Shown piece by piece: positions 8,542 through 26,215 of a stretch of DNA of 64,000 nt (position 1 is the first letter of the stretch; each line of letters begins with the position of its first letter). The notes beneath the pieces were generated by a model. That model was given only the letters and a program-made list of their open reading frames with translations, made no database searches and was not told where the DNA came from. Source of the stretch: a bacterium (GTDB taxonomy: Bacteria > CSSED10-310 > JAFGSJ01); the NCBI GenBank assembly GCA_016934675.1, contig JAFGSJ010000051.1:75387-139386 (forward strand), in the 5' to 3' direction. A program made the position numbers and the translations under genes.

Positions 8542-8856
8542 TTATCGCAATTTTTCACGTTCGGATAATATGAAATTTCGAAGCTGACGTTCACCTCTCA
8601 TAATGTAGAGGATGTAAACTGATCCCTTTTCAAAACGATAAAAAATTCGGCAGGGACCAACTATTTTTTCGCGATATTGCGTCCGCTTCAATTCAGGAGG
8701 TCTTCTTCCGGATTCAGGATACTTTTCAAGTTTTTCGACGACATTAAATACTTTTTGGACAAGTCTTTTCGCCGCGCCAACGTCATCCAGTGAAATATAT
8801 TCCGCGATCTCTTCCAAATCCTGAAGCGCCGGCTCTGTCCAGATCAGTCGAGCCAT
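8542..8856 (-). CDS. Type II toxin, RelE/ParE family
   Basis: 104 aa, basic, with a C-terminal beta-rich segment (GSVYILYIMRGERQL). It overlaps the upstream Phd/YefM-like gene by 13 nt, as is typical for TA pairs. Confidence 0.6.
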   Translation of the reverse strand: MARLIWTEPALQDLEEIAEYISLDDVGAAKRLVQKVFNVVEKLEKYPESGRRPPELKRTQYREKIVGPCRIFYRFEKGSVYILYIMRGERQLRNFILSEREKLR

Positions 8857-9101
8857 TTCTTCATTACTTCTCTCGCATTTATTTTTGAAACAGTTTTCTT
8901 TTCAATAATTGCGCGTTCGCCTCTGGCTATCCCCTCAAGAATTTCCATGCGAGTTTGCATTAATTCATAATCATCAGCATCAACTAAGTATGCGGAAGGT
9001 TTGCCATGTTCTGTGATTAACACTGGTTCACGATTTTTGTGCAATTCAGCCAAAATTCGTGTCGCTTCTCTTTTTAAAGTAGTTACGATTTCAGTTTTCA
9101 T
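8844..9101 (-). CDS. Type II antitoxin, Phd/YefM family
   Basis: 85 aa. N-terminal Phd/YefM-like fold signature (EATRILAELHKNREPVLITEHGKPSAYLV). It sits upstream of and overlaps the toxin gene. Confidence 0.65.
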   Translation of the reverse strand: MKTEIVTTLKREATRILAELHKNREPVLITEHGKPSAYLVDADDYELMQTRMEILEGIARGERAIIEKKTVSKINAREVMKKWLD

Positions 9102-9105
9102 AATA

Positions 9106-9121
9106 TGATACTATAGTATCA
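9106..9121. promoter_or_regulatory. Perfect 16-bp palindrome TGATACTATAGTATCA, 5 bp upstream of the antitoxin start. Candidate autoregulatory operator overlapping -10-like hexamers.
   Basis: The sequence equals its own reverse complement. It contains TATAGT and TATACT hexamers. Phd/YefM-type antitoxins are known to bind palindromic operators. Confidence 0.4.
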
Positions 9122-9434
9122 CTTTTGAAAATGTCAAGTTGTTTGTCCGGACCCAGTGATATAGGATAGTTGGTCCGAGACCATGGCTTTCGGGCGATCC
9201 GGTCCATGCGACCGAGCTGTTTTCACATCATCAGAAAGGATGCTTTGTACTGTTAGCTCACAAACTCGATCCCGATCAACCAGCCGGACTGGATGCCCGA
9301 GGTGTTCCGGAAGGCTACAAAGAGCAATATTTCATCGAGAATGATCTGTGACTATGCTGAATGTGTGGTGAAACCGGACGTGTCAAAGATTCCTGTTTCC
9401 AGAACCAGGACGAAATCAGTATAGCGGGTGTTGA

Positions 9435-10177: not shown

Positions 10178-11191
10178 CTAATGAGTATTGTTTCTTTTGA
10201 CAATTTTAACCGAAACCTTATCGGGAATAAATTGTTTCACTGACACGCGATTAGTCAGTTCTCTTGGAAACTCGACTTTCGGTATGACATCACGCCATTT
10301 ATCAGCAGGCAACTCCTGCACATCAAGAATGAGCCGTAACATACCGGGTTCGAGGCTTCTGATGATGTTTTGAGGGCCCTCAACAATGACCGTCACCTTC
10401 TCAGGATTGTATTCCTCGATTGTATCCGTCCCCTCAAGTCTCTTTATTTCCATATCCATATTTTTAAATTCTTTGGTGACCAGGATTTCCACTATTTCGA
10501 ATATTATGTCCACACTCGCCGGTTCACAGATGACAAAATTCGGGGTAATTAAGGGCGTTTCAGCTAAGGTATACATTGTCTGATCATATTTGATCTCAAG
10601 ACTGCCAAGATTAACCGGTCGGGATTGTACAGAATTCCGGGATTCAAGAATCGAACGGGGACCCGATAAACTGGCCGTTTCGGGATCAAGACTGATGCTC
10701 TTGATCTGAAAACCCTCGGGTAAAACGCCCAAATACTCCTTGGTAATCTCAACATTTTTCTTGATATAGTAATCGAGCATGACGGAGATTGTCGTTGGAT
10801 TGATAGCAATTATTTCCACGCCCAGGGGAACATTCTGAATGTTCTTGTTCGTCAATTCAAAAACGACCTCTTTGCCCCAATCATTGAATGCAGATGGAAG
10901 TTCGATATTCAAACTCGCCTGTTTGGCAATTTTGGACATAGCGCTGGGAATACCCTTCATCCGCACTGAAATAAGATCATTGATATCATTCGCTTTTTTA
11001 AACATCCGGACAATACCATCATCAGGCAAATTCTGAAACGAGGCACTCTCCACTCTCAAATCGACTTTCTGCTCGATTTTCCCCTGTATCTGAACAACAA
11101 ACCATAAAATAATGGCCAAGACAAAGGAACCCACTTTCAGAAAGAAATTCTCAAACAGGAGTCGAGAAAGATACCGTCGCTTTGAATACAT
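10178..11191 (-). CDS. cdaR: YbbR-domain regulator of diadenylate cyclase (CdaR)
   Basis: 337 aa with an N-terminal TM helix followed by repeated YbbR-like beta domains. It lies immediately downstream of cdaA with a 1-nt overlap. Confidence 0.7.
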   Translation of the reverse strand: MYSKRRYLSRLLFENFFLKVGSFVLAIILWFVVQIQGKIEQKVDLRVESASFQNLPDDGIVRMFKKANDINDLISVRMKGIPSAMSKIAKQASLNIELPSAFNDWGKEVVFELTNKNIQNVPLGVEIIAINPTTISVMLDYYIKKNVEITKEYLGVLPEGFQIKSISLDPETASLSGPRSILESRNSVQSRPVNLGSLEIKYDQTMYTLAETPLITPNFVICEPASVDIIFEIVEILVTKEFKNMDMEIKRLEGTDTIEEYNPEKVTVIVEGPQNIIRSLEPGMLRLILDVQELPADKWRDVIPKVEFPRELTNRVSVKQFIPDKVSVKIVKRNNTH

Positions 11192-11982
11192 TATGGCCCC
11201 ATACCTGGTAGAAGTTGAGGTAGATACTGTTTTTTCAGAATTTGTCTGAGAGACTCGATGTCCAGGTCCGCTTGAAGCTTTCCTTCAATGGCCAGTGAAA
11301 TTTTTCCAGTTTCTTCTGAAACGACGATGGCCAAACAATCCGCCTCTTCTGTGATACCAATTGCAGCCCGATGACGCGATCCGGCCGCTTTTCCCAGATG
11401 AGGGCTCTTGGAAAGCGGCAGGAAACAGGCAGCAGATTCTATTCTGGCCTGATTGATGATCACGGCCCCATCATGGAGCGGGTTTTCTGGGTAAAAGATT
11501 GCCCTGAGTAACTCGCTTGAAATTGTGGCGTTCAGCGTACTGCCTTTTTCACGATATTCACGCAAACCCGTATTACGCTCCAAAACAATGATCGCCCCTG
11601 TCTTGGATTCGGCCATGGCCGCCGTCGCTTTAATAAGTTCATCGAGCATCTGTTCTTCGATTAATTTCCTCTTTCGGAATATGCCGCGCTGTCCGACTTC
11701 TGCCATGGCTTTACGCAATTCCGGCTGAAAAATGATCAGCAAAGCCACGATCCAGAAATAGAGGAAATTTTGCAGGAACCAGCGAATCGTATATAATTGG
11801 AAATTCTGGGCAAAATAGGACGCGCCCAGGAGGATAAAAATACCGATGAACATCTGAACGGCCAATGTTCCTTTGATAATCAAGAAAAAACGATAGAGTA
11901 TGAACGTGACGATTAAAATATCAATGATATCGGTAAACGATACACTGATGGGTGGCAGGCTATGTAAATATTCGACGATCAT
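11191..11982 (-). CDS. cdaA: Diadenylate cyclase CdaA (c-di-AMP synthase). Three N-terminal TM helices plus a DAC domain.
   Basis: DAC-domain motifs DGAVII and RHRAAIGITEEADCLAIVVSEETG. N-terminal membrane helices. Conserved ftsH-folP-cdaA-cdaR neighbourhood. Confidence 0.85.
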   Translation of the reverse strand: MIVEYLHSLPPISVSFTDIIDILIVTFILYRFFLIIKGTLAVQMFIGIFILLGASYFAQNFQLYTIRWFLQNFLYFWIVALLIIFQPELRKAMAEVGQRGIFRKRKLIEEQMLDELIKATAAMAESKTGAIIVLERNTGLREYREKGSTLNATISSELLRAIFYPENPLHDGAVIINQARIESAACFLPLSKSPHLGKAAGSRHRAAIGITEEADCLAIVVSEETGKISLAIEGKLQADLDIESLRQILKKQYLPQLLPGMGP

Positions 11983-12821
11983 GCCCTGACGATGGCGTCA
12001 GCAATTTTCAAGGCCCGAAACGTTTCCTTGACATCGTGGACCCGGACCAGGCCAGCCCCACGCACCACAGCCATAATCGCTGCCGCCAGACTTCCTTCCA
12101 ACCGGTCATTAACCGGCGTTTCGAGTATGGTATTGATAAAGGATTTCCGGGAAGCACCGATTAAAATCGGTCGATGCAACTCGGTCCAATGGTTGAGATT
12201 GTTGATCAACTGTAGATTGTGCATTGCAGTTTTACCAAAACCGATCCCGGGATCAATGATGATCTGTTCCGGGAGCACACCCTGCTCGCACACCCAATGT
12301 ATTCTCTCGGCCAGATAGTCTTTGACCTCGAGGACAACATTTGTGTATTGCGGTTGCACCTGCATATCCTGGGGTGTTTTTTGCATATGCATCAGGACCA
12401 AGCCAGCCCGAAAATCTCGGATCAGTTCGACCATTTGGGGGGCAACGGTTAGGGCAGAAATGTCATTGATCATAGACACACCTGCTTGTAAGGCTTCACG
12501 AGCTACCTCAGCTTTCGAGGTATCGACTGAAATCGGCACCTTGAGACGCGGGACTAACCTGTCGATGATCGGCATGATCCGGCCCAATTCCTCGGTTGCT
12601 GAAATTCCGTCCGAGAAGGGACGTGACGATTCACCGCCAATATCAATCAGGTCTGCGCCCTGGTCCTCCATTTCCAAGGCCCGTTCAACCGCTTTATCAG
12701 GCGAGTCATATAATCCGCCATCGGAAAAACTGTCTGGAGTAACATTGAGAATACCCATGATCAGGGTCTTACTCGCGGTTGACAAGGTGTATGACCCGGC
12801 TCTGATTATGTGTTGCCCCAT
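11979..12821 (-). CDS. folP: Dihydropteroate synthase
   Basis: Pterin-binding signature DIIDIGGESSRP and LNVTPDSFSDGG. Length 280 aa. Confidence 0.85.
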   Translation of the reverse strand: MGQHIIRAGSYTLSTASKTLIMGILNVTPDSFSDGGLYDSPDKAVERALEMEDQGADLIDIGGESSRPFSDGISATEELGRIMPIIDRLVPRLKVPISVDTSKAEVAREALQAGVSMINDISALTVAPQMVELIRDFRAGLVLMHMQKTPQDMQVQPQYTNVVLEVKDYLAERIHWVCEQGVLPEQIIIDPGIGFGKTAMHNLQLINNLNHWTELHRPILIGASRKSFINTILETPVNDRLEGSLAAAIMAVVRGAGLVRVHDVKETFRALKIADAIVRA

Positions 12822-12878
12822 GACTTTCCCGCTCTCGTCCCGGTCTGGCTCTCATCAGTAAAAAAAACCAAATTCTGA

Positions 12879-14678
12879 TTAACTGGTAGCTCCCAATAAC
12901 CGATCGATCTCGTCTCCGGCGATGACTTCCTTTTCCAGGAGGGCTTTGGCTAACAAATGAAGCTTCTCGATATGGTCCTCGAGTAGCTTCCGGGCCCGAT
13001 TAAAGTTCGTGATAATCAAATTTCGGACTTCCTGGTCAATACTGCGTGCCGTTTCTTCACTGTAATCCCGGTGCTGGGCAAATTCCCGGCCCAAAAAGAT
13101 ATGCTCTTCCCTTTTTCCAAATGCCAGTGGACCAAGATTTTCACTCATTCCCCACTCACATACCATTTTCCGAGCAAGCTCAGTAGCCCGTTCAATATCA
13201 TTGCCCGCTCCCGTGGTCAGAATATTCAGGACCAACTCCTCAGCCGCCCGACCACCCATCAGAATAGCCAATTCATTAACCAAATACTCTTTAGGATAGT
13301 TGTGCTTTTCATCGATCGGTAACTGCTGGGTCACACCCAGAGAACGACCGCGTGGAATAATGGTGATCTTATGAATCGGGTCTGAACCGGGAATGAGTTT
13401 TGCGACGAGAGCATGCCCACATTCATGGTAAGCCGTATTTTTCTTCTCTTCATCCGAGATGATCATGCTTTTACGTTCAGCACCCATGAGGACCTTGTCT
13501 TTCGAGTACTCGAAGTCATCCATGTCCACCCGGGCTTTCTCGCGCCGAGCGGCGATGAGAGCCGCTTCATTGGCCATATTGGCCAGATCAGCCCCGGTAA
13601 AGCCCGGGGTTCCCCGGGACAGTATTTCCAAATTGACATCATCAGCCAGAGGTATATGCTTGGTATGAACTTTGAGGATGCCTAAGCGTCCTCCGACATC
13701 CGGCAACGACACCACGATCTGTCGATCAAAACGACCGGGACGAAGCAGGGCCGGGTCCAAAACATCCGGACGATTCGTCGCGGCTAACAAGATGACGCCT
13801 TCGTTCGTCTCGAAGCCGTCCATTTCCACTAATAATTGATTGAGGGTCTGTTCCCGTTCGTCATGACCGCCACCGAGGCCGGCACCACGGTGACGTCCCA
13901 CGGCATCAATTTCGTCCATAAAAATCAAACAGGGTGCATTTTTCTTGCCCTGATCGAACAAGTCCCTGACCCTCGAGGCCCCCACCCCAACAAACATCTC
14001 GACGAAATCCGATCCCGAAATGCTGAAGAATGGGACATCCGCTTCACCGGCAATAGCCCGGGCCAACAATGTTTTTCCCGTACCCGGAGGTCCTACGAGT
14101 AAGACCCCCTTGGGAATTTTACCACCTAAACGCTGAAATTTCTGGGGGTCCCTTAAAAATTCAATGATCTCAGTCAACTCATCCCTTGCTTCATCAATGC
14201 CGGCGACATCCTCGAAGGTGACTTTACTTTGAGCACTCGAGAGAAGTTTGGCCCGACTCTTGCCAAATGATAAAGCCTTGTTGCCACCTACCTGCATTTG
14301 ACGCATAAACACGATCCATATCCCCACGATCAAAAGGATGGGAAACCATTGCGTCAAGATGAGCAGGAACATACTTTCCTTGACTTCCTCGACTTTGACC
14401 TCGATCGCATGGTCGTTCAAGTACTTCAACAACTCATATTCAACCAGGGTATATAATTTGAACTTTTCCAAGCCCTCGACTTTCGAGCGAAAAGAACCCT
14501 CGATCGAGTTGCCCTTGATCGTAACCTTATGGATATTGCCCCGCTCGATCTCGCTGACGAACTGGCTGTAATTCAACTCTTTCACGGTTGGCGTACTCGT
14601 TTGAACCAGTGTATATGCCGCGACAATAATCATGAACGCCAGTAACCAGAAAGCTAGATTTTTATATTTGTTATTCAT
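12879..14678 (-). CDS. ftsH: ATP-dependent zinc metalloprotease FtsH
   Basis: Walker A GPPGTGKT. The AAA second region of homology. HECGH zinc-binding motif. Two N-terminal TM segments. Length 599 aa. Confidence 0.9.
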
Positions 14679-14920
14679 AAAAACACCACTCCCCGTAAAG
14701 CAACATCTCGGATTAGTACAAAAAAGCGACGATCAACATACCGTAACAGTTCCGAACAACTGTTGATCATAAAAATGAATAGAACCTTTTACTGTCCTTG
14801 TCAACCGTAACTCTTCATGTCAGGAGTGTCCGCCAGTAACATTTTATCGGAACATGACCCGAAAAGATGCAAATCTGCAAGCATACCCCGAAAATTAATA
14901 CTCACCGGGAACGCCCATCA

Positions 14921-16366
14921 TTAGGGAGTATCTCCATTTGGGGTTGATTGGATCAGCCGCAAGAGCAGGCATTGTCGTGTCCTTGACGTAACCGGGGCAT
15001 AATTCGATCTCCTCCTGCCTGCAATCCAAATGATTCGGTCATCAGATATGACCAGGGGGACCAATCCCTTGAGTTGAACGGGGATACGTTGATTGATAAG
15101 ATACTTTTTAAGAGAAATATCCCGTGACATCCCAAATGGAATAAAACGGTCCCCTGAACAGCGGGCTCGAACGAAGAGACGTGGAGCGATCAGGGCCGCA
15201 TCAAATATTTCGACCGAGGGATCGTGGAAGATATCTTCCAACACAGTTGAATCGGGAGGAGACTCGAGCACGGTCGCATCAAGACATTGGTTGGTGGGAG
15301 TAAGTTTGATAGAGCCGGGCACGGCCAAATATTGGTCAGATAATGAGGGATATGCTTCCCGACACTGCCGATAGCACTCCAGGCAAAGTGACCTCGTCCT
15401 GATCATGATCATGCCCGAGATCGGGCGGGGTCGAATCTCGGAGCCCGCTTCGAGTGCAGTCATGATCGCTTCCACTTTTTGGAAGAGTTTGCCGGGCCGT
15501 TGGTCTGGTTGGAACAGTTCATACAGTACTTGTACGATCAAACGCCTTCGCAAGGCCGGATGTAGACGCATCAACCTGGTCAGGTCCAGACATATACGCT
15601 GATGCTCGCGTCGAACCAGGTCCGGATCACTGCTGGCCAGTCTGACCAGTTCTTCGATCAAATCATTTTCACCCCGTAAGATCGCAAGGGTCGTTGTCAG
15701 TATCTCGTTAAGACAACAGCGTAACTGCTGCTCGATCAGGGGAACAATGTGGTGCCGGACCTTGTTCCGAATATAGGCATCACCCTGATTGGAAGAATCC
15801 TCGACATAGGCAAATCCGTTCTCACGAAGATAATCCTCAATCTGTCGACGAGTACTGTTCAGCAAGGGTCGCGCTATATGGTCCGCAGTGAGGGGCAACA
15901 TAGCTTTAAGGCCCTCCAAGCCCGCCCCGGATACAAGCCTGATAAAGAACAATTCCACATTATCATCTAAGGTATGACCTAACGCAATCCGTTCAGCATG
16001 TTCTTGCTGGCACAAGTGCCGGAAAAACTCGAAGCGTATGGTCCGACAGCACATTTGGATGGAATCGGCCCTGGTTAAGAGCTGGTCCCGGCTAACCTTC
16101 TTGAGGAAAAAGGGTAGCTGATAGAGCTGGCATTGGCAACGGACAAAATCCTCATCGCGGTCGGATTCAGCCCCACGTAAGCCATAGTTGACATGGGCCA
16201 CCACGAGACGCATGGGCTGATGCTGGGTATAGCTCACAAGAAGATGCAGCAAAGCAGTTGAATCTGCACCGCCCGAATAGCCCAGAATGATGGTGGAAAC
16301 TTCATGAAAAAGCCTATGTTGGTCTATATATGATCGAACATGTTCGAAAAGATCATCACCCATCAT
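14921..16366 (-). CDS. tilS: tRNA(Ile)-lysidine synthetase
   Basis: PP-loop SGGADS near the N-terminus. Length 481 aa. It sits in the canonical position upstream of ftsH. Confidence 0.8.
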   Translation of the reverse strand: MMGDDLFEHVRSYIDQHRLFHEVSTIILGYSGGADSTALLHLLVSYTQHQPMRLVVAHVNYGLRGAESDRDEDFVRCQCQLYQLPFFLKKVSRDQLLTRADSIQMCCRTIRFEFFRHLCQQEHAERIALGHTLDDNVELFFIRLVSGAGLEGLKAMLPLTADHIARPLLNSTRRQIEDYLRENGFAYVEDSSNQGDAYIRNKVRHHIVPLIEQQLRCCLNEILTTTLAILRGENDLIEELVRLASSDPDLVRREHQRICLDLTRLMRLHPALRRRLIVQVLYELFQPDQRPGKLFQKVEAIMTALEAGSEIRPRPISGMIMIRTRSLCLECYRQCREAYPSLSDQYLAVPGSIKLTPTNQCLDATVLESPPDSTVLEDIFHDPSVEIFDAALIAPRLFVRARCSGDRFIPFGMSRDISLKKYLINQRIPVQLKGLVPLVISDDRIIWIAGRRRSNYAPVTSRTRQCLLLRLIQSTPNGDTP

Positions 16367-16380
16367 CTGAACGTAGCGAA

Positions 16381-16453
16381 TGGCGGAGCCGGGATTCGAA
16401 CCCAGGACTCCACGGATATGAGCCGTGTGCTCTACCGACTGAGCTACTCCGCC
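16381..16453 (-). tRNA. tRNA with CAU anticodon. Either elongator tRNA-Met or tRNA-Ile2 (lysidine substrate). It is not an initiator type.
   Basis: The reverse complement GGCGGAGTAGCTCAGTCGGTAGAGCACACGGCTCATATCCGTGGAGTCCTGGGTTCGAATCCCGGCTCCGCCA folds as a cloverleaf. It has a 7-bp acceptor stem, GCTC/GAGC D-stem, CACGG/CCGTG anticodon stem, CTCATAT loop (anticodon CAT) and a TTCGAAT T-loop. The 1:72 pair is G-C and there are not three G-C pairs in the anticodon stem, so it is not an initiator tRNA. Confidence 0.8.
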
Positions 16454-16596
16454 GGAATGTCACTACCATATAGTGCTCCCCTGACTTTGTCAAGGGTGGA
16501 ACGCCCTCCATTCCTTCGGCCCAATATGTCGGGGACTGCCTGCTCTTCCATGTTGACTTCTGCTGTACTCTGATATTATTAGTAAAAGAGATAAGT

Positions 16597-18195
16597 ATGA
16601 CTCAAGAACACCTGACGACTTTCCCATTGACTCGGGAGAATCATGCCATGACCGATTATAAAATTCTCGTTGTTGAAGACGACGCGCCTGTTCTTGATTT
16701 ACTCGTTAGTATTCTCGAAAGCGAAGGGTTCCAGGTCGTCTCCGCCAGGAATGGCCAGGACGCACTGACCTTGCTTCATTCTTTTAATCCCGATGTCATC
16801 CTGTCAGATATCATGATGCCAGTCATGAACGGCCTCGAATTTCTGAAACATGTGCAAAGTGACGAGAAAACCCGAAATATTCCTTTCCTGTTCCTCAGCG
16901 CGAAAAAGGATGTTCAGGATAAAGTCGAAGGATTATCAATCGGCGCTGATGATTATATATGCAAACCTTTTGTACTCGAGGAACTTTTGGCTCGAATCAG
17001 GACCCGCCTGAAAAAAAAGGAAGAGCTCCTGGCCAGGAGCTCTTTAACTCGGGGGGCCATGGTCGGCGATTTGACCGTCTTTCCAATCATTGACCTAGTC
17101 CAGATACTGCGATTGGAAAAGAAAACCGGTGAAATGACCCTGTCGTTCCAAAATACTGAAGCCTATCTTCGACTGAATCAGGGAGAAGTCGTGGATGTTG
17201 AGTTTGGACAATTATCGGGCGTTCAGGCTTTTCTCTCAATCCTTGAACATGAACAAGGTTGGTTTTCATTCAGTCTGGCTGATGGACCATTTCCAACGAA
17301 ATTGGAGCTCAACACCCAGGAATTACTCGTTGAAAGCACTCGTCAACTGGACGAATATAAGAATTTATTAGCAAAATTGCCCCCTCTCGAGCTGGTCTAT
17401 CGCATTTCCGAAAGGAAAAGTTCGACCGTGCTTTCTGTCAAAGAGATGAAAATACTGTACCTTTTTGACGGCGAACACAATCTGGGAGAGGTGTTTCAAA
17501 ATTCCCCGTTCGAGCAATCAAAAACGGTTGAAATCATGCAAGACCTCATCCACAATGGTTTTTTGGAAGAAAATGTGCCCGGACAGCCCCCCCTTGATCA
17601 TGAGCCCTCTTTCGGTTTGACGGCACTGGACCAGGAATCCATGACCCGGTTGAGATCAATACTTAAATCTCATCAAGGCATCCCCTGTATCATGGTGATC
17701 AGCCTCGACCTTGCTTCCGTCGAACAGTTTTTATACAGATTGTGCAGTCCGGACCAACTTATAAAAAACGATTATTCGCTGAATAGAAAGGAAAAAATCA
17801 ATTTTCAAAAAGTGGCTTTCGATGACAGGGATGAGTTAAACATCTACGGCCTCAAAGGCTTTCGCCAATTTTCCTTTTTGTGGCATGTTCTTGATCGGGA
17901 TATTCTCGGACTCATTCTCTTGATTGAAACGACAAAAACGCTCGATCAACCATCAATACAAGCCTTTTATGAGTTGCTGAACCGGACATATGAGCTGCCC
18001 TATATCACTGCGCTCAACCAAACAGGGGCTTCTACCGATACCAATCCTGAGCCCATGCCACACCAAGCTGACCACGACTATCATCTTTTTCCCTGTTCCT
18101 TTGCCTCGGGTCACTCTTTGGCCATACTCCTGAAAAAATGGCTGGAATTCGTAACAGAACATCGCCCAATTGTCCCCAATAAGAAGAATGGATAA
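16597..18195 (+). CDS. Atypical response regulator: REC receiver, a DUF4388-like domain, and a ~200 aa C-terminal domain of unknown function (no P-loop). The true start is probably the internal Met at 16648 (MTDYKILVVEDD).
   Basis: REC signature KILVVEDD...D...VILSDIMMP...DDYICKPF. The segment GDLTVFPIIDLVQILRLEKKTGEMTL matches the DUF4388 signature (recalled, not searched). No DNA-binding output domain is seen. Confidence 0.6.
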   Translation: MTQEHLTTFPLTRENHAMTDYKILVVEDDAPVLDLLVSILESEGFQVVSARNGQDALTLLHSFNPDVILSDIMMPVMNGLEFLKHVQSDEKTRNIPFLFLSAKKDVQDKVEGLSIGADDYICKPFVLEELLARIRTRLKKKEELLARSSLTRGAMVGDLTVFPIIDLVQILRLEKKTGEMTLSFQNTEAYLRLNQGEVVDVEFGQLSGVQAFLSILEHEQGWFSFSLADGPFPTKLELNTQELLVESTRQLDEYKNLLAKLPPLELVYRISERKSSTVLSVKEMKILYLFDGEHNLGEVFQNSPFEQSKTVEIMQDLIHNGFLEENVPGQPPLDHEPSFGLTALDQESMTRLRSILKSHQGIPCIMVISLDLASVEQFLYRLCSPDQLIKNDYSLNRKEKINFQKVAFDDRDELNIYGLKGFRQFSFLWHVLDRDILGLILLIETTKTLDQPSIQAFYELLNRTYELPYITALNQTGASTDTNPEPMPHQADHDYHLFPCSFASGHSLAILLKKWLEFVTEHRPIVPNKKNG

Positions 18196-18370
18196 TATGT
18201 ATACTAAAAACGAATTGACCTAAAACCGACCTCGATATTGTCGCCCTTGCAGGCGGGCACTTCGATCATGATTGGGCAAAAACCTTTACTCTGAAAGAGT
18301 TTATTTGACTTTTATGACCTCATAGTGTATAATACTTTCGATTCGGGTTATCTCTACTGCTAACATTTTC

Positions 18371-20206
18371 TTGTGGTTCTATCCGGACCACTATTTTCAG
18401 GGAAATAATGGTTCGGAAAGGGGGAGTATTATGGCATATAAAATTTTACTTGCCGATGACAGCGTCACGATTCAAAAGGTTGTCGAGTTGACCTTTGCAG
18501 AAAGTGATTATCTGGTCACATCGGTCAGTGACGGCATCTCGGCACTTAAAAAAATCAAAGAGATCATGCCGGATGTCGTTTTACTTGATGTGTTCATGCC
18601 TCAAATGGATGGATATCAAGTCTGTCAGAAAATCAAATCCGATCCCGTTATGAAAGATATTCCGGTTTTATTATTGACCGGAACATTTGAATCGTTTGAC
18701 GAGGAAAAAGCCGATCAGGTCATGGCCGATGGCTATCTGACCAAACCTTTTGAATCAACAGAGCTGATTACTCAAGTTGAGAATCTAGCCCGGAAAAGGG
18801 TCGCAGCTGACGCGGAAGGCCAATCGGGAAGCAGTGTGCCAAAGCCCCCCTCTGAAACAGCGGACATTGACTTTGAGGACATGTCCGCCGAAGAAACTGC
18901 ACCTGAACAGACATCTCTGGCATCTGACGACAATGCTGAAGAACCTCTCTTCGAAGCTGATGAGGCTGATGAAGTCATGGAGGCTGAAATTGCCGAGGAA
19001 GATGAAGAAATCAGCAATGTTTCGAGTGCTGAGCATGAACCTGTTTTTGATACAGGCGAAGAATCTGAATTCCTGACAGAAGAAGAGAAAATATTCGGTG
19101 CGGATGAAGACGATGACTTGGCTATTGCCAAGGACACAGCTGAAAGCGATGAAGATTTACTCTGGGAAGTCTCAGAAGAGGAGAAAGACGGCGAAGATGA
19201 GGACCTTTTCGAGGAAAGCTCATCTGAAGATGAGGATATATCTGTCCAAGCTGGTCCTGGCCAGGAAGTTGATCAATTATTTGCCGAGGAACAAACCACA
19301 AAATCTGAGGAAGACCTGGAAGATATTTGGGAAGAACCACTCGAATCAACTGATTCCGTGGAAATCGGCGGCGAGGATTCCTCCCGGGATACCATTTCTT
19401 TTGATGATGGTACTGATTCCGATGATGCACTCTGGAGTGAATCCGACCTTGAGCACACTTCAGAATCAGCTAAATCGGATTTTGAATCTGCTGACGAAGA
19501 GACTCCCCCTGATTCATTGTCGACAGCAGAAGATGATTTTGAGAGACCCGAACTTTCAGAATCGTCTGGCGTCACTTTTGCAGATTCCCCCGAAACCACT
19601 GATGAAGTCCAACCTGATAGTTTTGAGGAAAGCCCGGATATTTCGGCTGAGGAACCTTCCATCAGCACTCCCCCTGATGTTGAGGAACCTATTTCCTATT
19701 CTGAAGCACAAGGTGGCTTCGAGGATGACCTGAAAGCGGAACCCTTATCAGTAATGACAGATTCTCCTCTTTCCACTGATCTGGATATCGAAGAAGAGTT
19801 AGAACCCGATCAAACAGAAGCAGAAACCGAGGACGAACCTGAAATCGAGGCCTCGGAGAGCGTCGAAGAAACAGCTCCGGTCGGCATGACGGCTCACCAA
19901 ACGGTTCATCAAAGGCCCCTGACCTCTTCGCCTCTGTCCCCTGACGATTTTCAGAAAATGGTTGCGGACCAACTCGAACTGCTCTTGTCTGCTCATCTCA
20001 ATACCATTACCGAACAGGTTGCTGATAAACTTTCTCTGAAATTGGGACGGACCGTGGCAGAAAGCATCGTTACTAAACTCGGTATCGGAACAGTGCCTGA
20101 TAAAGCGAAGACCTTGATCGAAGAAATAGCCTGGGAAGTTGTCCCCGATCTGGCCCAGGTCATTATTCAGAAGGAAATCGAAAATATCAAGGCAAAGATG
20201 AACTGA
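18371..20206 (+). CDS. Response-regulator receiver protein with a ~400 aa polyacidic disordered linker and a conserved C-terminal helical domain (RomR-like architecture). The true start is probably at 18431 (MAYKILLADD).
   Basis: REC motifs (ILLADDS, DVVLLDVFMPQMDG, DGYLTKPF) are followed by an extremely D/E/S-rich region spanning aa ~150-520. It ends with a non-acidic ~90 aa helical C-terminus. Confidence 0.7.
   Translation: MWFYPDHYFQGNNGSERGSIMAYKILLADDSVTIQKVVELTFAESDYLVTSVSDGISALKKIKEIMPDVVLLDVFMPQMDGYQVCQKIKSDPVMKDIPVLLLTGTFESFDEEKADQVMADGYLTKPFESTELITQVENLARKRVAADAEGQSGSSVPKPPSETADIDFEDMSAEETAPEQTSLASDDNAEEPLFEADEADEVMEAEIAEEDEEISNVSSAEHEPVFDTGEESEFLTEEEKIFGADEDDDLAIAKDTAESDEDLLWEVSEEEKDGEDEDLFEESSSEDEDISVQAGPGQEVDQLFAEEQTTKSEEDLEDIWEEPLESTDSVEIGGEDSSRDTISFDDGTDSDDALWSESDLEHTSESAKSDFESADEETPPDSLSTAEDDFERPELSESSGVTFADSPETTDEVQPDSFEESPDISAEEPSISTPPDVEEPISYSEAQGGFEDDLKAEPLSVMTDSPLSTDLDIEEELEPDQTEAETEDEPEIEASESVEETAPVGMTAHQTVHQRPLTSSPLSPDDFQKMVADQLELLLSAHLNTITEQVADKLSLKLGRTVAESIVTKLGIGTVPDKAKTLIEEIAWEVVPDLAQVIIQKEIENIKAKMN
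20144..20200. repeat. 57-bp direct repeat, copy 1. It is the last 19 codons of the acidic regulator gene.
   Basis: CCCGATCTGGCCCAGGTCATTATTCA[G]AAGGAAATCGAAAATATCAAGGCAAAGATG recurs at 22045..22101 with a single mismatch. Confidence 0.85.
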
Positions 20207-20894
20207 GCACCGTGCTTGATTCGAATTACGCTCGGTCTTACGCCATGTGATACCATGCAACCAGAAATCTGGATCGTGCAGAATATCCGGTCCCGTTACT
20301 CGCCATAATGCGCTTTGTTCTCACGAGCCGAACTTTGAGTTTCTGAAGGACCCCGTAATCCTCGATTCCTTCTCCTTTATGATGACAACGAAATTCTCGT
20401 CGGTCAATGTCATCATTAACGGCATCAAACACCTCGGACGACCGCTGATTGATGCTCAACGATTATACCTGGCCAGGCTCAGGCTGACTACTGATTTCTT
20501 TACTCACTTTTACGGAAAACCGACGCGTCTGAAAATGAAAAAATTTCAGCGAGCATGATGTGTGACCATGCTGAATATGCGATGGAAATCCTCGAATCCC
20601 TCAATATCAGGAACTCGTTTGTCCCCAACCACCAGGCACTTTTGTCGAAAAAGAGGACCGTTCCGGTCATGCCCGAGCGCCATTTGACGCCGGTCCCACT
20701 GACACCGCAGTCAACAACCAAAAAGCAACTCCTGCTGTGATGATGAGAGGTGTAACTCCGGTCATTTATTTAACGACCCCTCTTATAGAAGAAGAGGAAA
20801 CGCAGCAACTTTTTATTCCAGTATGTCCATGTACTCTGGACTTACTGGCCGAAAAATGATATAGTAGTCACTGAAAGGTTTAACCAGGTGTCGA

Positions 20895-21548
20895 GTGCGA
20901 GGAACAATGATCATTGATATCCGCAACAAGGTCAATCATGAGGAACTGGACTACAATTTTCTCATGGATTGTCTGAAGGATTACCGGAAACCCCGAGACA
21001 AGTTATCATTACTCATCAGACGAGGTGAGTTAATCAAGGTTAAAAAGGGATTGTACGTTTTTGGGGAAAAAATTGCCCGACGACCTTATTCGCGTGAAGT
21101 GCTGGCTAATCTCATCAATGGACCTTCGTATGTTTCATTGGAGTATGCTCTGTTTTATTGGGGCATGATTCCCGAGCAGGCTCACGTGGTCACTTCGGTG
21201 ACGCTGGGCAAGAGCAGAAGATACAGCACCCCGGTCGGTTTTTTTTCGTATCGGCATTTGGACCGGGAACGTTATGAAGTGGGTTTAACGCTCGAGAGTC
21301 TCGATGACGGCAGATCGTTTCTTATAGCGGCCAGAGAAAAGGCTTTCGTCGATTTGATCTGGGCCGATCGAACCGGTCATGTGCGGAGCGAGATTGACCT
21401 CGATCAGTATGTGCATGAAAATTTACGCATTGATGACGAAGTGTTGCGTTCACTGGACCTTACCAGAATGGACCGGATTTGTGCTCGATTTCGCTCCTCC
21501 AAACTGGACCTGCTACGGCGTTATTTAGGGGATTTGGGACATGAATGA
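20895..21548 (+). CDS. AbiEi-family antitoxin / transcriptional regulator (type IV TA, abortive-infection system AbiE)
   Basis: 217 aa. The N-terminal wHTH-like region and the GPSYVSLEYALFYWGMIPEQ motif are characteristic of AbiEi/COG5340. It overlaps the downstream AbiEii-like gene by 8 nt. Confidence 0.6.
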   Translation: MRGTMIIDIRNKVNHEELDYNFLMDCLKDYRKPRDKLSLLIRRGELIKVKKGLYVFGEKIARRPYSREVLANLINGPSYVSLEYALFYWGMIPEQAHVVTSVTLGKSRRYSTPVGFFSYRHLDRERYEVGLTLESLDDGRSFLIAAREKAFVDLIWADRTGHVRSEIDLDQYVHENLRIDDEVLRSLDLTRMDRICARFRSSKLDLLRRYLGDLGHE

Positions 21549-21882
21549 AGCCATTTTAACCATGCTCAATCACTATAAGTGCAGAAGTGTCGATGATTAT
21601 CTGGCGGCTTTGAGAGAAATACTGCAATCACTGGCCTTACTCGGTCTGTGGCGGACAAAGTTTTTTGAGCATGCAGCCTTCTATGGTGGTTCCGCCCTCA
21701 GGATTTTGTATGGCCTGGATCGATTTTCAGAAGACCTGGATTTCTCACTCTTGAAACCCGGACCTGATTTCGATCTGTTCAGGTATTTGCAGGGACTGCA
21801 AACGGAACTCGAAAGTTACGGCTTCCGAGTACAGCTTGTTCTGAAAAAGAAATCAAGGACCAATGAATCAGACGTGAAGTGA
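21541..21882 (+). pseudogene. Truncated AbiEii/AbiGii nucleotidyltransferase toxin. Only the N-terminal ~110 of ~300 aa remain.
   Basis: FYGGSALRILYGLDRFSEDLDFSL matches the N-terminal FxGGTAL...RfSEDLDF signature of the DUF1814/AbiEii family. The ORF stops after 113 aa. No continuation is seen in any frame before the direct repeat. Confidence 0.6.
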
Positions 21883-22044
21883 CCCCCTTCATTGGTGAAC
21901 CCACAAGCCTTCAAGTCTGGTCAAAGACCTTTTTCAACACTCTCATAACCAGAATCCAGCTCATGTGAGAAAAACCATATTTTGCAATCCTCTTCTATCA
22001 CCGGTAAAAACTGGGGAATTGTAGACCGGTGATAGCACGCTATC

Positions 22045-22101
22045 GCCCGATCTGGCCCAGGTCATTATTCAAAAGGAAATCGAAAATATCAAGGCAAAGA
22101 T
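22045..22101. repeat. 57-bp direct repeat, copy 2, at the right edge of the AbiE islet. It encodes PDLAQVIIQKEIENIKAKM followed directly by TAA.
   Basis: Identical in 56 of 57 nt to 20144..20200. It is preceded by an 11-bp inverted repeat CTATCACCGGT..ACCGGTGATAG at 21995..22035. Confidence 0.85.
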
Positions 22102-22107
22102 GTAACA

Positions 22108-22142
22108 GCAGATGAGTTTTGGGATAGTACACTCATTTTTTG
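22108..22142 (+). terminator. Candidate intrinsic terminator after repeat copy 2: stem ATGAGT/ACTCAT followed by a T6 run.
   Basis: GATGAGTTTTGGGATAGTACACTCATTTTTTGA. It is a weak AT-rich stem with a U-tract. Confidence 0.35.
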
Positions 22143-22326
22143 ACGGTCACGGGTTGCATTCGTGTGCAGACGGATCGACACGACATCTGAACGAAAAGGT
22201 GAAGTGATGTGCTACCGGCAATCGTTGCTCTGACCGGGAATATGAGGGAACGATTTGGGTCGCATCGTTCGAAAGTGAACGTCGAGAGATTCCTGAAATC
22301 AAGGGGTTAGTGTCTCTGACCTCTTA

Positions 22327-23961
22327 TCAATAGAAACAGGTCGAGTACAGCCCACTGATACATCTCATGACTACCTGAGCATAACCATTGTCTGTCGTGG
22401 CAAGATCAAATCCCTGAAAATAATCGGGACGATCCTCGAGGTTCAACTCGTCCTGCCACCCACGAGCGGACCAGTAACGTTTGGAACAGACACTCCAAAA
22501 CTGGTCATTTGGCAACGTTTTCGACCAGATTGCGTGAGCGTTTCCATGAGCATCAAGAGAAATACGCGGCATTCGTGCCTCGCCGGTTGTATCGATTTCT
22601 TCCGGTTGCGACCAATCTTCAGAGAGAGTGGAGCGTACCACACAGATAGATCGTTGATAGACACCGTTTTCACCATAAATTGCCTGATCATAAATCACCA
22701 TACTGTCACCATTATCAGAGAGGTCAATATCTGCATAGCTGATATTGAGCCCGTCGATATTCCTGGTAAGGCGGACAGGTGCCTGCCAGGTACCATTGAC
22801 CAACCGAACAGCCCACAGGCTCTCTTCCCGAGTCCTCAAGACAGTAATCGCATCACCCCGTTTATTCATTGCCGTCCCGGCACTACTTATCCAATCGCTC
22901 TCAGCCAGGATTAGTGGTGAACCCCAGCCTGTTTCCGTATTAAACATTATAACATTCTGACTTGTCATAAAATAATTTCCATAGAAAAGGAGGAATGTAC
23001 CGAGTCGATCAGTGTTCAATGCAGCGATCGAGATTTGTCGGGGAACACCGGGTATCCGTTCCCGTTCACGCCACCCTGTTTCCGGGGAGTACATTGAATA
23101 TAAATAGTAGTACTGTGAATCATCTAGCCAAATCAGAAGAGCGTGTCCGTCCTGACCACTGGCAATCCTACCCCCACGTGCGCTCTCACTGAAAAGAACA
23201 GCATCACTCCACCCGCTTTCAGTTGAGTACCGGGCTAACCACAGATCACACTCCGTACCAAATGGATGTTCTGTTTCCCGGACCTCCAACCATAAAACGA
23301 AGGCGTTACCCTCCTCATCAATACAATTTGAGGTGGAATGTGGCTCGCCTGCAACATCGCAACTGATCACAGTCGAGTCACCCCAACCCTGCGTTCTGTC
23401 ATGGAACGCGGCACAGACCCTGTAATTACCGTCAATACTCTGGACCCAGGAGAGAATCGCTCTACCCGAATCATTCAGACTAATGGTCGCAGATAAAATC
23501 CACTCACCATCACCAACACGTTCTAAATTCTGCCAGGAGCCATCCCTGGTCGTGAACTGTAAGTGAAAATTACGTTCCAGCTCATGACCGGACATGGCAC
23601 TGACTGTAGTCGTGATCAGAGCCTGATAGGTGCAATGAAGATCGAGCTCCTCCGCAAACGTTATCAGCAACACAGCTCCAGAGACGGATAATAGTGTTCC
23701 CCTGACCTTTTCTCCATTAGTGTCAAAAATCGAAACACTCGACTCGTCGACCGTTTCCCTGTTCAATTCTTCTGAAAATGTGATCCGGACCCTGGTGTCC
23801 AGAGGGACCTGTTGGGCATACTCAGCCGGATCAGTGGCCAGCACTATCAGAAATTTCTCCTCGTCATCGGAACAACTCGTAGCCAATATCGCCATCCAAA
23901 AAATACTACTCAGAAGTATGATTGTTTGTGTACTCAACCGAACTATACATTCTCGAACCAT
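22327..23961 (-). CDS. Secreted or lipo-protein with an Ig-like domain and ~7 degenerate ~45-aa repeats, each containing a GW motif (beta-propeller-like)
   Basis: N-terminal hydrophobic signal with a possible lipobox (LATSC). Recurring xSGW/xTGW/NGTW/EDWS/ARGW motifs appear at ~45-50 aa spacing. Confidence 0.45.
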   Translation of the reverse strand: MVRECIVRLSTQTIILLSSIFWMAILATSCSDDEEKFLIVLATDPAEYAQQVPLDTRVRITFSEELNRETVDESSVSIFDTNGEKVRGTLLSVSGAVLLITFAEELDLHCTYQALITTTVSAMSGHELERNFHLQFTTRDGSWQNLERVGDGEWILSATISLNDSGRAILSWVQSIDGNYRVCAAFHDRTQGWGDSTVISCDVAGEPHSTSNCIDEEGNAFVLWLEVRETEHPFGTECDLWLARYSTESGWSDAVLFSESARGGRIASGQDGHALLIWLDDSQYYYLYSMYSPETGWRERERIPGVPRQISIAALNTDRLGTFLLFYGNYFMTSQNVIMFNTETGWGSPLILAESDWISSAGTAMNKRGDAITVLRTREESLWAVRLVNGTWQAPVRLTRNIDGLNISYADIDLSDNGDSMVIYDQAIYGENGVYQRSICVVRSTLSEDWSQPEEIDTTGEARMPRISLDAHGNAHAIWSKTLPNDQFWSVCSKRYWSARGWQDELNLEDRPDYFQGFDLATTDNGYAQVVMRCISGLYSTCFY

Positions 23962-24330
23962 AATACTCCTCCTTCGGACACGATCATGACCTCACTTTTC
24001 AGCTCAAAGCAGACCAAACTCACTCCTAAAATATTTCAGCAAGTTTCATGCCATCAGCGCAGACTTGATCCACAAGACTGAAATGATTCGCAGGTATATC
24101 AGGCTGGATCGGGCATGAGGCACGGTCCCACTCTGCAGGAAGATGTTCACTCTCGAGCCAGAAAGCCCTCTCTTGGTGTAACTATTTTGAACATGTGCAG
24201 CTTGATGTGCCTTTTGTGAACATGTCCAGCTGGGCTGAGAAAGAGAAGTGGGGTGAGAGAAGAATCATCCAGCTTTCGGAGCGGTGGAATGGGCGTCGGC
24301 TCCATGCGCTCGTTAGCTTACGGGCGGCAT

Positions 24331-24681
24331 CTATGCCAGCTCGAAGTAGTAGGCGATAAACTCAAAAACACCACCCGGATTCCCGAAGTACTCCTGATGG
24401 TCGGAGCGGAATTCGTCGGCACTTGAGTTCGTCTCGCCCCTCCACAGACGCTCGGGAATCGAGTCCCAGCGACAGAGCTCCATGCCGATTATGCGTATCG
24501 TGGCCCGGCACTCAAGCTTGCTGTCGTAAACATCGTAGTACCTGCCAACCACCAGAGCGTCGTTGTACTCATCCTCCTTGATGTCGACCTCGCCCAGCGC
24601 CACGACGCTTGCTGTCTTCCGCCCATTGACGACCTGCTCAACCAAGGCGTCCGATACGAACTGTATCCTCAAGTTTTTCAA
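24331..24681 (-). CDS. ASCH (PUA-like) domain protein
   Basis: 116 aa. Small beta-barrel-like pattern with a C-terminal EFRSDHQEYF-type segment reminiscent of ASCH domains. The assignment is tentative. Confidence 0.4.
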   Translation of the reverse strand: MKNLRIQFVSDALVEQVVNGRKTASVVALGEVDIKEDEYNDALVVGRYYDVYDSKLECRATIRIIGMELCRWDSIPERLWRGETNSSADEFRSDHQEYFGNPGGVFEFIAYYFELA

Positions 24682-24796
24682 TTCAAAACTCCATCCTACT
24701 GGCTAACATGCGCATAATCCGCGACGCGAGACTGGCGTGGTTTGTGCCTTATAGCACATACCATGACGGGCCGCGGAGTCGGGTTAATGCGGTTTG

Positions 24797-25390
24797 TTAA
24801 ACGATTCTTTTCTTCATGAATACTGCTATTTCCTGATTCGCAAAATCATCATTTGTATAAAATGAAATATCAATGCCTTCAATTCTATAACCATGCTTAT
24901 AATAAAAATCTATTGCCTTGCCGTTCTTTGTCTGTGTTTCTAAAGCTATTATTCGGTAGTTGTTTTCTTCTGCTATCCTATAAATTTCATTCATGAGTAA
25001 AGATCCATAGCCTTTTCCTCTTTCATTCTTAATAATTTCAATGGATTCAATGAACATAGTGTTATTCCATTCTCGCTTTTCCAAAAGAAACTGTCCTATT
25101 GGAAAATTGTCTGAAAATAACGTATACGATAATCCATAATTAATGATTTCCGTTAATCTATATCTTTCATCATCAGTGCGAATCCATACTTTTTGGTTTG
25201 GCTTGTCTTTTATTCTTCTTTCTACCTTAAATTCAGTTTTTTCGCTTCCACATGAAAAAGAAACCTGATATTCAACATCAGATTCATATCCTGATTCAGG
25301 CAATAGATTGAGATCACTGTATTTTCGGATTTGCTCAAACTTTATCATATATTCCTCAACAATCTTGCGTCTGCAGGGTCCGCCCAACAT
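24797..25390 (-). CDS. GNAT-family N-acetyl/acyltransferase
   Basis: Acetyl-CoA binding motif ERGKGYGSLLMNEI...AIDFYYKHGY. It lies in a low-GC segment. Confidence 0.75.
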   Translation of the reverse strand: MLGGPCRRKIVEEYMIKFEQIRKYSDLNLLPESGYESDVEYQVSFSCGSEKTEFKVERRIKDKPNQKVWIRTDDERYRLTEIINYGLSYTLFSDNFPIGQFLLEKREWNNTMFIESIEIIKNERGKGYGSLLMNEIYRIAEENNYRIIALETQTKNGKAIDFYYKHGYRIEGIDISFYTNDDFANQEIAVFMKKRIV

Positions 25391-25444
25391 AATAATCAGC
25401 AGCCCTTCGAAACACCGAAAGGCGCGTAATAACGTCCGCTGGAT

Positions 25445-25852
25445 TTACTGATTAGGGATTATTTGCAATTTCTTTGACTTTAAATCCTGTAAATCTACCA
25501 ATATCTTGAGCCGAGTTCCTTCCTTTTTTGATTCATACTCAACAATGAATATATGTTTCTTTTCGGGATTATTTTCTTTCGCAAAACCCGAAGTCCTGGC
25601 TGGTAGAGAATAGATATTTTTTAAGTTTGTTCTGAATACAAATTCATTTGCCAAGTCCCAGGCCATACCGTTATACAATTCTGCCGGTCCCGGATCAGAG
25701 TTTTGTTCATATATATCGTTTCCAATTAATTGATACCACACGCCAGCTTTTGGCTCAAAGTTTGATTGCGCTGATTCGATTTCTACTGGTTCGCCATCTG
25801 CCCAACAGAGAATTGGAAGGACTAAGAATAGGCTGGTAAATATTTTTTTCAT
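25445..25852 (-). CDS. Small secreted hypothetical protein. Signal peptide MKKIFTSLFLVLPILCWA. Start taken at the internal Met.
   Basis: Classical signal peptide. There are no recognisable domains. It is AT-rich. Confidence 0.4.
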   Translation of the reverse strand: MKKIFTSLFLVLPILCWADGEPVEIESAQSNFEPKAGVWYQLIGNDIYEQNSDPGPAELYNGMAWDLANEFVFRTNLKNIYSLPARTSGFAKENNPEKKHIFIVEYESKKEGTRLKILVDLQDLKSKKLQIIPNQ

Positions 25853-26215
25853 TTTTTCCCCTAACGTCAGAGCTAACCGGGCTCTACAGACGGGCCAAGT
25901 CCACCGATCATCGTCTGACAAGTCAACGATTGCCTGTCAATTCCAGTTCGACACATTGAGGATTGGGCTTCGATTCAACGAATTGTTCTGTGGTTCATTG
26001 TTTCTTTTCGGATTGAGTTTGAAATTATTATACCACAGAGCTCATAGAGAGCACAGAGAATTTTCATAAACAACGAGAATCTGAAGCGTTTGATCCCATC
26101 CTTGAGCAATTTCTGATTGACATTGATCAGTAAACCGGTGGTAATTCCCGGAAGCTTCATGTAAGTCAGGCTCTGTGCTTCATGAATTCCCGTGATCTCT
26201 GACACTGCGTTCTGT

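Follow-up and report, generated by a model that had tools for sequence, protein, structure and literature searches.

A degraded mosaic of AbiE and IS1634-family sequences between 57-bp direct repeats at the 3′ end of a response-regulator gene

The window analysed here is a 64,000-nucleotide stretch of contig JAFGSJ010000051.1 (positions 75,387 to 139,386, forward strand; assembly GCA_016934675.1) from a bacterium of the CSSED10-310 lineage. It contains a response-regulator gene whose last 57 nt are repeated 1845 bp downstream, and the DNA enclosed by the two copies carries, in order, the 3′ remnant of a transposase gene of the IS1634 insertion sequence (IS) family, about 220 bp of other DNA, the intact abiE operator/promoter with abiEi, and a broken abiEii. 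The insert is a degraded mosaic, the scar of an ordinary insertion rather than a defence islet that still works. In the reading that we favour with moderate confidence, mobile DNA, an integrated element, entered the extreme 3′ end of the regulator gene and has since decayed to a scar. The features on which this reading draws are as follows (P0001 and P0241 are protein homologues and L003 and L004 the closest AbiE loci, all described below).

18431–20206, plus strand: response-regulator gene (Pfam Response_reg, E 3e-23; 100% identity to P0001)
20144–20200, plus strand: left 57-nt repeat copy (repeat comparison)
20319–20558, plus strand: 3′-end remnant of an IS1634-family transposase gene (HMMER and tblastn against P0241)
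20540–20587, plus strand: 3′ tail of the IS, around and after the transposase stop codon (81% identity over 48 nt to window positions 9326–9373)
20818–20865, plus strand: abiE operator/promoter (conserved in L003 and L004; promoter scan)
20907–21548, plus strand: abiEi, full-length antitoxin/repressor of 213 aa (PADLOC AbiEi, E 3e-61)
21541–21968, plus strand: abiEii pseudogene (tblastx and alignment against L003 and L004)
22046–22102, plus strand: right 57-nt repeat copy, followed by TAA (repeat comparison and open reading frame list)
22110–22141, plus strand: hairpin with an 8-bp stem and a 13-nt loop running into T6 (fold −8.8 kcal/mol, z = −0.79)

The two copies of the direct repeat, at 20144–20200 and 22046–22102, are identical at 56 of 57 positions and enclose 1845 bp (20201–22045). 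The sole mismatch, at position 27 of the repeat, is synonymous (CAG versus CAA, both Gln), and the longest exact blocks common to both copies are 26 and 30 nt. The original prediction, made from the letters of the window, had reported that the last 57 bp of the regulator open reading frame (ORF) recur with a single mismatch, and this holds, except that the right copy had been placed one base too low, at 22045..22101. The 64-kb window contains just these two copies, and such a repeat appeared in none of 100 dinucleotide-preserving shuffles. The regulator gene's final 19 sense codons (PDLAQVIIQKEIENIKAKM) make up the left copy, and the stop codon lies outside the repeat. The right copy still reads in frame as ...SPDLAQVIIQKEIENIKAKM-stop (TAA), as had been stated, and has no upstream start codon. 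It lies in no ORF and is an orphan, non-coding duplicate of the regulator gene's 3′ end.

The regulator gene encodes a protein of 591 aa that consists of a receiver domain, an acidic linker of about 400 aa and a conserved C-terminal helix, and that is 100% identical to P0001 (591 aa) from an unclassified metagenome-assembled genome (MAG). It belongs to a large and apparently uncharacterised family in which a receiver domain and a variable, often acidic linker are followed by a near-invariant C-terminal motif; the source names among the matches to this family (loci L040–L119) include Acidobacteriota and NC10. The motif AWEV(I/V)PxLAE is conserved in more than 100 regulator homologues, 23–30 residues before the C-terminus. 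The helix that comes after this motif is encoded within the repeat, which therefore spans a functionally constrained segment; since it covers the C-terminal helix conserved across the family, an insertion that regenerates the helix would be tolerated. The gene now ends in KAKMN-stop, as the insert adds one Asn codon (AAC) and a TGA stop while the C-terminal helix stays in frame. Downstream of the right copy, the weak hairpin running into T6 may be the original terminator of the regulator gene; its folding energy is indistinguishable from that of shuffled sequences, and it was not listed by the terminator scan. The regulator is intact but for one extra codon and is separated from this putative native terminator. 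A second regulator, with a receiver domain and a PatA_N (DUF4388) domain, lies close to the regulator gene both in the window and in locus L002.

The AbiE cassette, defined by its homology to other genomes, spans approximately 20810 to 21968. The abiEi product matched the PADLOC AbiEi model (PDLC02230) with E 3e-61 over model positions 3–190 of 192, and its full-length identity was 72% to P0122, from a MAG of candidate division CSSED10-310, and 69% to P0123. Its score against NCBIfam TAA_AbiEi was 47 bits, below the 150-bit cut-off, and it likewise fell below the curated cut-off of Pfam AbiEi_4. The earlier description of abiEi as intact agrees with the 213-aa product and its coverage of the PADLOC model (positions 3–190 of 192). 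abiEi and abiEii overlap by 8 nt in a bicistronic arrangement, likewise in L003 and L004, and in both of these loci a complete 286-aa AbiEii is encoded by an 861-bp gene 3′ of abiEi.

Relative to the 861-bp genes of L003 and L004, abiEii in the window has an out-of-frame internal deletion of 433 bp with its junction at about 21869–21871. Positions 21541–21870 align to abiEii codons 1 to about 110, the ORF stops at 21882, and the last 33 codons and stop codon of abiEii are present at 21870–21968 in another frame. The original prediction had described the toxin gene as its N-terminal third only; what remains is a gene with a deleted interior that retains its last 33 codons. The remaining ORF of 113 aa keeps the GS...DLD nucleotidyltransferase motif and covers only positions 2–104 of 270 in the PADLOC AbiEii model and 3–57 of 238 in Pfam AbiEii. 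With the core deleted and the end out of frame, the locus does not encode a full-length AbiEii (DUF1814). Because abiEii is disrupted, toxicity and phage defence are predicted to be lost, and AbiE in the window has very probably ceased to work as a toxin or in defence.

Upstream of abiEi, the inverted repeat CCAGTATGTCCA-N7-TGGACTTACTGG at 20818–20848 overlaps a −35-like TGGACT, and a −10-like TATAGT follows at 20860–20865, together giving the abiE promoter identified by the promoter scan. This operator-like inverted repeat is common to the window, L003 and L004, although the loci are only about 70% identical overall. Across the three AbiE loci the conserved form is CCAGTATGTCCA-N7-TGGACATACTGG (window 20818–20848; L003 about 2554–2586; L004 about 371–402). 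Two papers describe AbiE as a bicistronic, autoregulated toxin–antitoxin (TA) system of type IV (PMC3985639, PMC7319586), and the inverted repeat at 20818–20848, a predicted operator, fits the published autoregulation of abiE by AbiEi, which involves inverted repeats. Judged from its sequence, abiEi survives with this operator as an orphan autorepressor/antitoxin.

The left part of the insert contains the IS remnant. An exhaustive HMMER comparison matched a 103-aa ORF at 20247–20558 to the C-terminus of P0241 (555 aa) with E 2.5e-8, and tblastn placed the P0241 homology at 20319–20522 with 46% identity (E 1.4e-9). The remnant is about 46% identical to P0241 residues 484–553, that is, to only the C-terminal 70 aa or so, and the first 80% or so of the transposase gene is lost. 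P0241 itself contains DUF4277 and scored 253.6 bits against NCBIfam NF033559 (IS1634 family transposase), for which the cut-off is 100. Alignment with P0241 and P0243 showed that about 52 aa are missing in frame from the remnant, between FLKDPVILDS and FSFMMTTKF, and a word-indexed search with a chimeric peptide of the remnant returned a single distant match, P0243. Detectable IS sequence stops near 20587, and the true right end possibly lies some tens of nt beyond. Positions 20220–20318 resemble upstream transposase residues only weakly, below significance, and we make no claim of homology there.

A second IS1634-family transposase remnant was observed in the window at 9226–9342, overlapping the 48-nt IS tail at 9326–9373. 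It adjoins a ParE toxin gene (8542–8856, minus strand) and a Phd/YefM antitoxin gene (8844–9101, minus strand), and this locus is situated between pmbA/tldD-like genes and pdxJ (neighbours named by eye). Positions 8542–9373 are the second place in the window with a TA module beside an IS1634 fragment. No long flanking repeats were found around this second remnant or around the IS in locus L039.

Three further parts of the insert gave no match to known families.

20201–20318, no strand assigned: left-edge stretch of 118 nt, without terminal inverted repeat, protein-family match, Rfam match or similarity to L003 or L004
20588–20806, no strand assigned: stretch of about 220 nt between the IS tail and the AbiE cassette, without match to a family, Rfam, L003 or L004
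21995–22044, no strand assigned: inverted repeat and small palindrome, 27–76 nt 3′ of the abiEii stop codon

The 77 nt after the abiEii stop are not similar to L003 or L004 and contain the 11-nt inverted repeat CTATCACCGGT-N19-ACCGGTGATAG, with arms at 21995–22005 and 22025–22035. It ends 10 nt before the right repeat copy, as the original prediction had noted, and the chance expectation for matches to this 11-mer is about 0.01. A palindrome, GATAGC-ac-GCTATC, is located at 22031–22044, and folding over 21995–22044 is not exceptional (z = −1.7). Rfam gave no match over 19900–22400, and the insert DNA gave none in the plasmid and phage collections. Pfam and NCBIfam at lax thresholds likewise gave no match for the ORFs of 20201–20806, where the transposase remnant was revealed by HMMER alone. 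When the insert ends were compared with each other and with the IS tail for terminal inverted repeats, local alignments stayed at the level of shuffled sequences, and the IS tail, compared directly, resembled the right insert end no more than shuffles did. No recombination or transfer genes were found in the insert.

Whatever the history, position 20143 must originally have been joined to 22046, and therefore a 57-nt duplication and 1845 bp of foreign DNA were added. In the reading we favour, a larger element carrying the AbiE module would have integrated by recombination across about 57 bp of identity with the gene end, either between attP and attB by an element-encoded recombinase or through a Campbell-type crossover, and the identity segment would have been duplicated as putative attL and attR. 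An IS would later have landed inside the element, and successive deletions would have stripped away most of the IS as well as the recombinase and the abiEii core. The insert shows at least three deletions of its own (433 bp in abiEii, about 52 aa within the transposase remnant, and the first 80% or so of the transposase gene), and with decay so heavy a recombinase gene may plausibly have been lost as well. Consistent with an integrated element are the position at the extreme end of a conserved gene, a coding end that is regenerated, and cargo of mixed kinds. The AbiE cassette, a discrete unit in L003 and L004 as well, and the IS remnant are typical cargo and hitch-hikers, and the absence of IS-type terminal inverted repeats at the insert ends argues against simple transposition.

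On every reading the present structure is immobile by itself, and could be lost only through RecA-type recombination between the repeats or through a compatible recombinase acting in trans. Either event would leave the gene ending once more in KAKM-stop, beside the hairpin and T6. The predicted empty-site junction is ...GGGAAGTTGTC followed by one 57-mer and TAACAGCAGATGAG, so that the regulator gene would be followed directly by TAACAGCAG... and the Big_5 gene; the predicted circle junction is ...GCACGCTATCG followed by one 57-mer and AACTGAGCACCG. The original prediction had proposed site-specific integration of a small AbiE defence islet with duplication of the gene end, and excision restoring a regulator ending in KAKM. 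Two copies of the gene end do enclose foreign DNA, and recombination between the repeats would give the KAKM end as foreseen; the islet proved to be a decayed mosaic whose left third is an IS1634-family remnant and whose toxin gene is destroyed. The site-specific nature of integration and excision is something we only infer, because no remnant of a recombinase was found.

Several observations weigh against an integrated element. No integrase, excisionase or other recombinase was found in any frame of 20201–20806 or in the AbiE part, and none was recognised among the ORFs of at least 110 aa in 24–44 kb, which were judged by eye without a family search. The G+C content of the insert, 0.44–0.49, equals that of its flanks. 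L003 and L004, the closest AbiE loci, are not flanked by long repeats. The genome, metagenome, phage and plasmid collections yielded neither an empty site nor an intact element nor an attP-like copy; no close relative was present in the genome and metagenome collections. A second direct copy of the regulator 3′ end, sought at the protein and DNA levels, was present at none of the 36 informative loci, a weak test as these are distant relatives; the set comprised 80 metagenome loci of the regulator family, of which those with at least 2.5 kb of sequence 3′ of the gene were informative. Because none of the 36 is duplicated, integration at the regulator gene end does not recur among the distant relatives that were available. 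Finally, this account has to treat as coincidence that the IS remnant beside the left repeat comes from the one IS family known for long duplications.

The relatives available for these comparisons were remote. Apart from the identical P0001, the closest regulator homologue, P0002, is 49% identical, and its contig ends 195 nt 3′ of the gene. A scan of the genome collection with the whole regulator, using patterns drawn from its low-complexity linker, returned only generic receiver domains with 23–43% identity, and a scan of the JGI metagenomes with a 30-mer of the repeat returned no match. A related integrase-bearing element was sought in the phage, plasmid, genome and metagenome collections and was not found.

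The strongest competing explanation, which we regard as rather unlikely, is that the 57-nt repeat is a long target-site duplication produced by an IS1634-family element inserted before the regulator stop codon. The AbiE segment would then be a passenger, or would have been included by read-through to a surrogate right end near 22045, and the 5′ portion and left end of the IS would have been deleted later. IS1549 and IS1634 are described as generating target duplications of variable length, from 8 to 514 bp, in a family that mostly duplicates 5–6 bp and whose elements measure 1500–2000 bp (PMC2266710). The transposase remnant lies 119–358 nt inside the left repeat, its closest homologue P0241 scores above the NCBIfam IS1634 cut-off, a duplication of 57 nt is within the range given for IS1549 and IS1634, and the 1845-bp spacing is within the size range of the family. 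The second remnant at 9226–9373 indicates that the family has been active in this lineage, and a long duplication alone would preserve the gene end. A target duplication must, however, abut both ends of the IS, and here the repeats do not lie against recognisable IS ends: the IS is fragmentary, its detectable sequence stops near 20587, and the roughly 1.4 kb from there to the right repeat holds the AbiE cassette, which is free of IS sequence in L003 and L004, and other DNA. No terminal inverted repeats were found between the left edge at 20201 and either the IS tail or the right edge at 22045, and the IS tail has no direct similarity to the right end of the insert. Most members of the family duplicate only 5–6 bp, the other remnant locus in the window is without a long repeat, and the literature covered describes neither passenger genes nor surrogate ends in the family.

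The presence of the second IS1634 remnant beside ParE/Phd at 8.5–9.4 kb hints at a link between IS1634 and the spread of TA modules. The specific proposal that an IS1634-family element in this lineage made the 57-bp duplication while moving the adjacent AbiE cassette in a transposition unit is improbable in our judgement. IS1634-type long-duplication transposition with a TA cassette would in any case be only a mildly novel possibility, and we give it little weight.

A duplication that arose independently of any specialised recombinase appears unlikely, more so than a target-site duplication. A RecA-mediated single crossover might have introduced circular DNA that carried a copy of the gene end, for example from a sister strain; alternatively, template switching during replication, or a tandem duplication followed by replacement, might have produced the structure, and the repeats would then be neither att sites nor target duplications. 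The lack of a recombinase gene and of terminal inverted repeats is consistent with such routes, as are the near-identity of the repeats, expected for DNA of the same lineage, and a G+C content of the insert equal to that of the genome. The donor would, however, have to carry exactly the last 57 nt of the gene beside mobile DNA, which implies an earlier insertion there, and specific positive evidence for these routes was not found.

An assembly artefact, in which strain variants of this uncultured bacterium were mis-joined so as to add the second copy and the insert to the MAG, is highly improbable even though one single-nucleotide difference between assemblies points to possibly more than one haplotype, since a Logan contig from the same sample (L001, SRR13394437) agrees with the MAG contig over window positions 10431–26128 in layout and gene order with one mismatch in 15,698 nt, since no exact block longer than 30 nt is shared by the two copies, so that collapse would be excluded at k of 31 or more, lengths that we assume to be typical, and since neither the reading frames nor the conserved AbiE cassette is interrupted across the region. 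The sole difference between the window and L001 is G/A at 21330, changing AbiEi codon 142 from Ala to Thr. Because of this difference between the assemblies, the data suggest that at least two haplotypes carry the insert.

Two observations were made further along the window. Encoded in a patch of low G+C content at 24800–25900 (0.30–0.39, against about 0.47 around it) are a hypothetical protein of 158 aa and a GNAT acetyltransferase whose similarity to streptothricin acetyltransferases is below threshold; this patch was probably acquired horizontally. A very long ORF of 3081 aa occupies 32384–41629 on the plus strand.

Beyond annotation the significance of the locus is small, as it is a new instance of a well-known kind, the decayed scar of a mobile element. 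The annotation changes in three respects: abiEii becomes a pseudogene, abiEi an orphan antitoxin/repressor, and 20319–20558 a fragment of an IS1634-family transposase gene. The locus is also an illustration of a tolerated insertion point at which IS fragments and TA and defence modules build up and degenerate. Were the repeat a target-site duplication made by an IS1634-family element, the locus would be one more case of the long target duplications, as yet unexplained, that are known from that family; were the AbiE cassette transported in the process, transposition with long duplications would not be confined to IS1549 and IS1634 and would be tied to the spread of defence and TA modules.

Compared with the AbiE type IV TA and abortive-infection systems (PMC3985639, PMC7319586), the window shares the bicistronic arrangement with an 8-nt overlap, an AbiEi of full length and a promoter that contains an inverted-repeat operator. 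The toxin gene of the window, unlike theirs, has a frame shift and a core shortened by 433 bp, leaving a remnant with an orphan antitoxin. A further paper reports AbiE on an integrative and conjugative element (ICE).

Elements that have kept attL and attR and have lost their integration and transfer genes form a described class, the cis-mobilizable elements (CIMEs), which are decayed remnants of ICEs and IMEs (PMC5704250). The insert resembles a CIME in that repeats bracket it, one copy being a functional gene end and the other an orphan, and in that it is without a recombinase and its remaining cargo is an accessory TA/defence module. It differs from a CIME in that the att function of the repeats is only predicted and no related integrase-bearing element was found, in that it measures only 1.85 kb without sign of conjugation or mobilisation genes, and in that its host belongs to an uncultured, poorly sampled lineage, the closest AbiEi relative being in the candidate division CSSED10-310 MAG.

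Integration at the 3′ end of a protein-coding gene, with a substitute end supplied by the incoming element, is represented by phage 21 and e14 in icd and by ICESt1/3 in fda. The regulator locus is like these in that the integration site is at the extreme 3′ end, the end is duplicated and the gene stays functional. The known elements encode an integrase beside the att site, whereas none remains in the insert of the window; in a further difference, the substitute end here departs from the other copy by one synonymous base and is accompanied by one extra codon.

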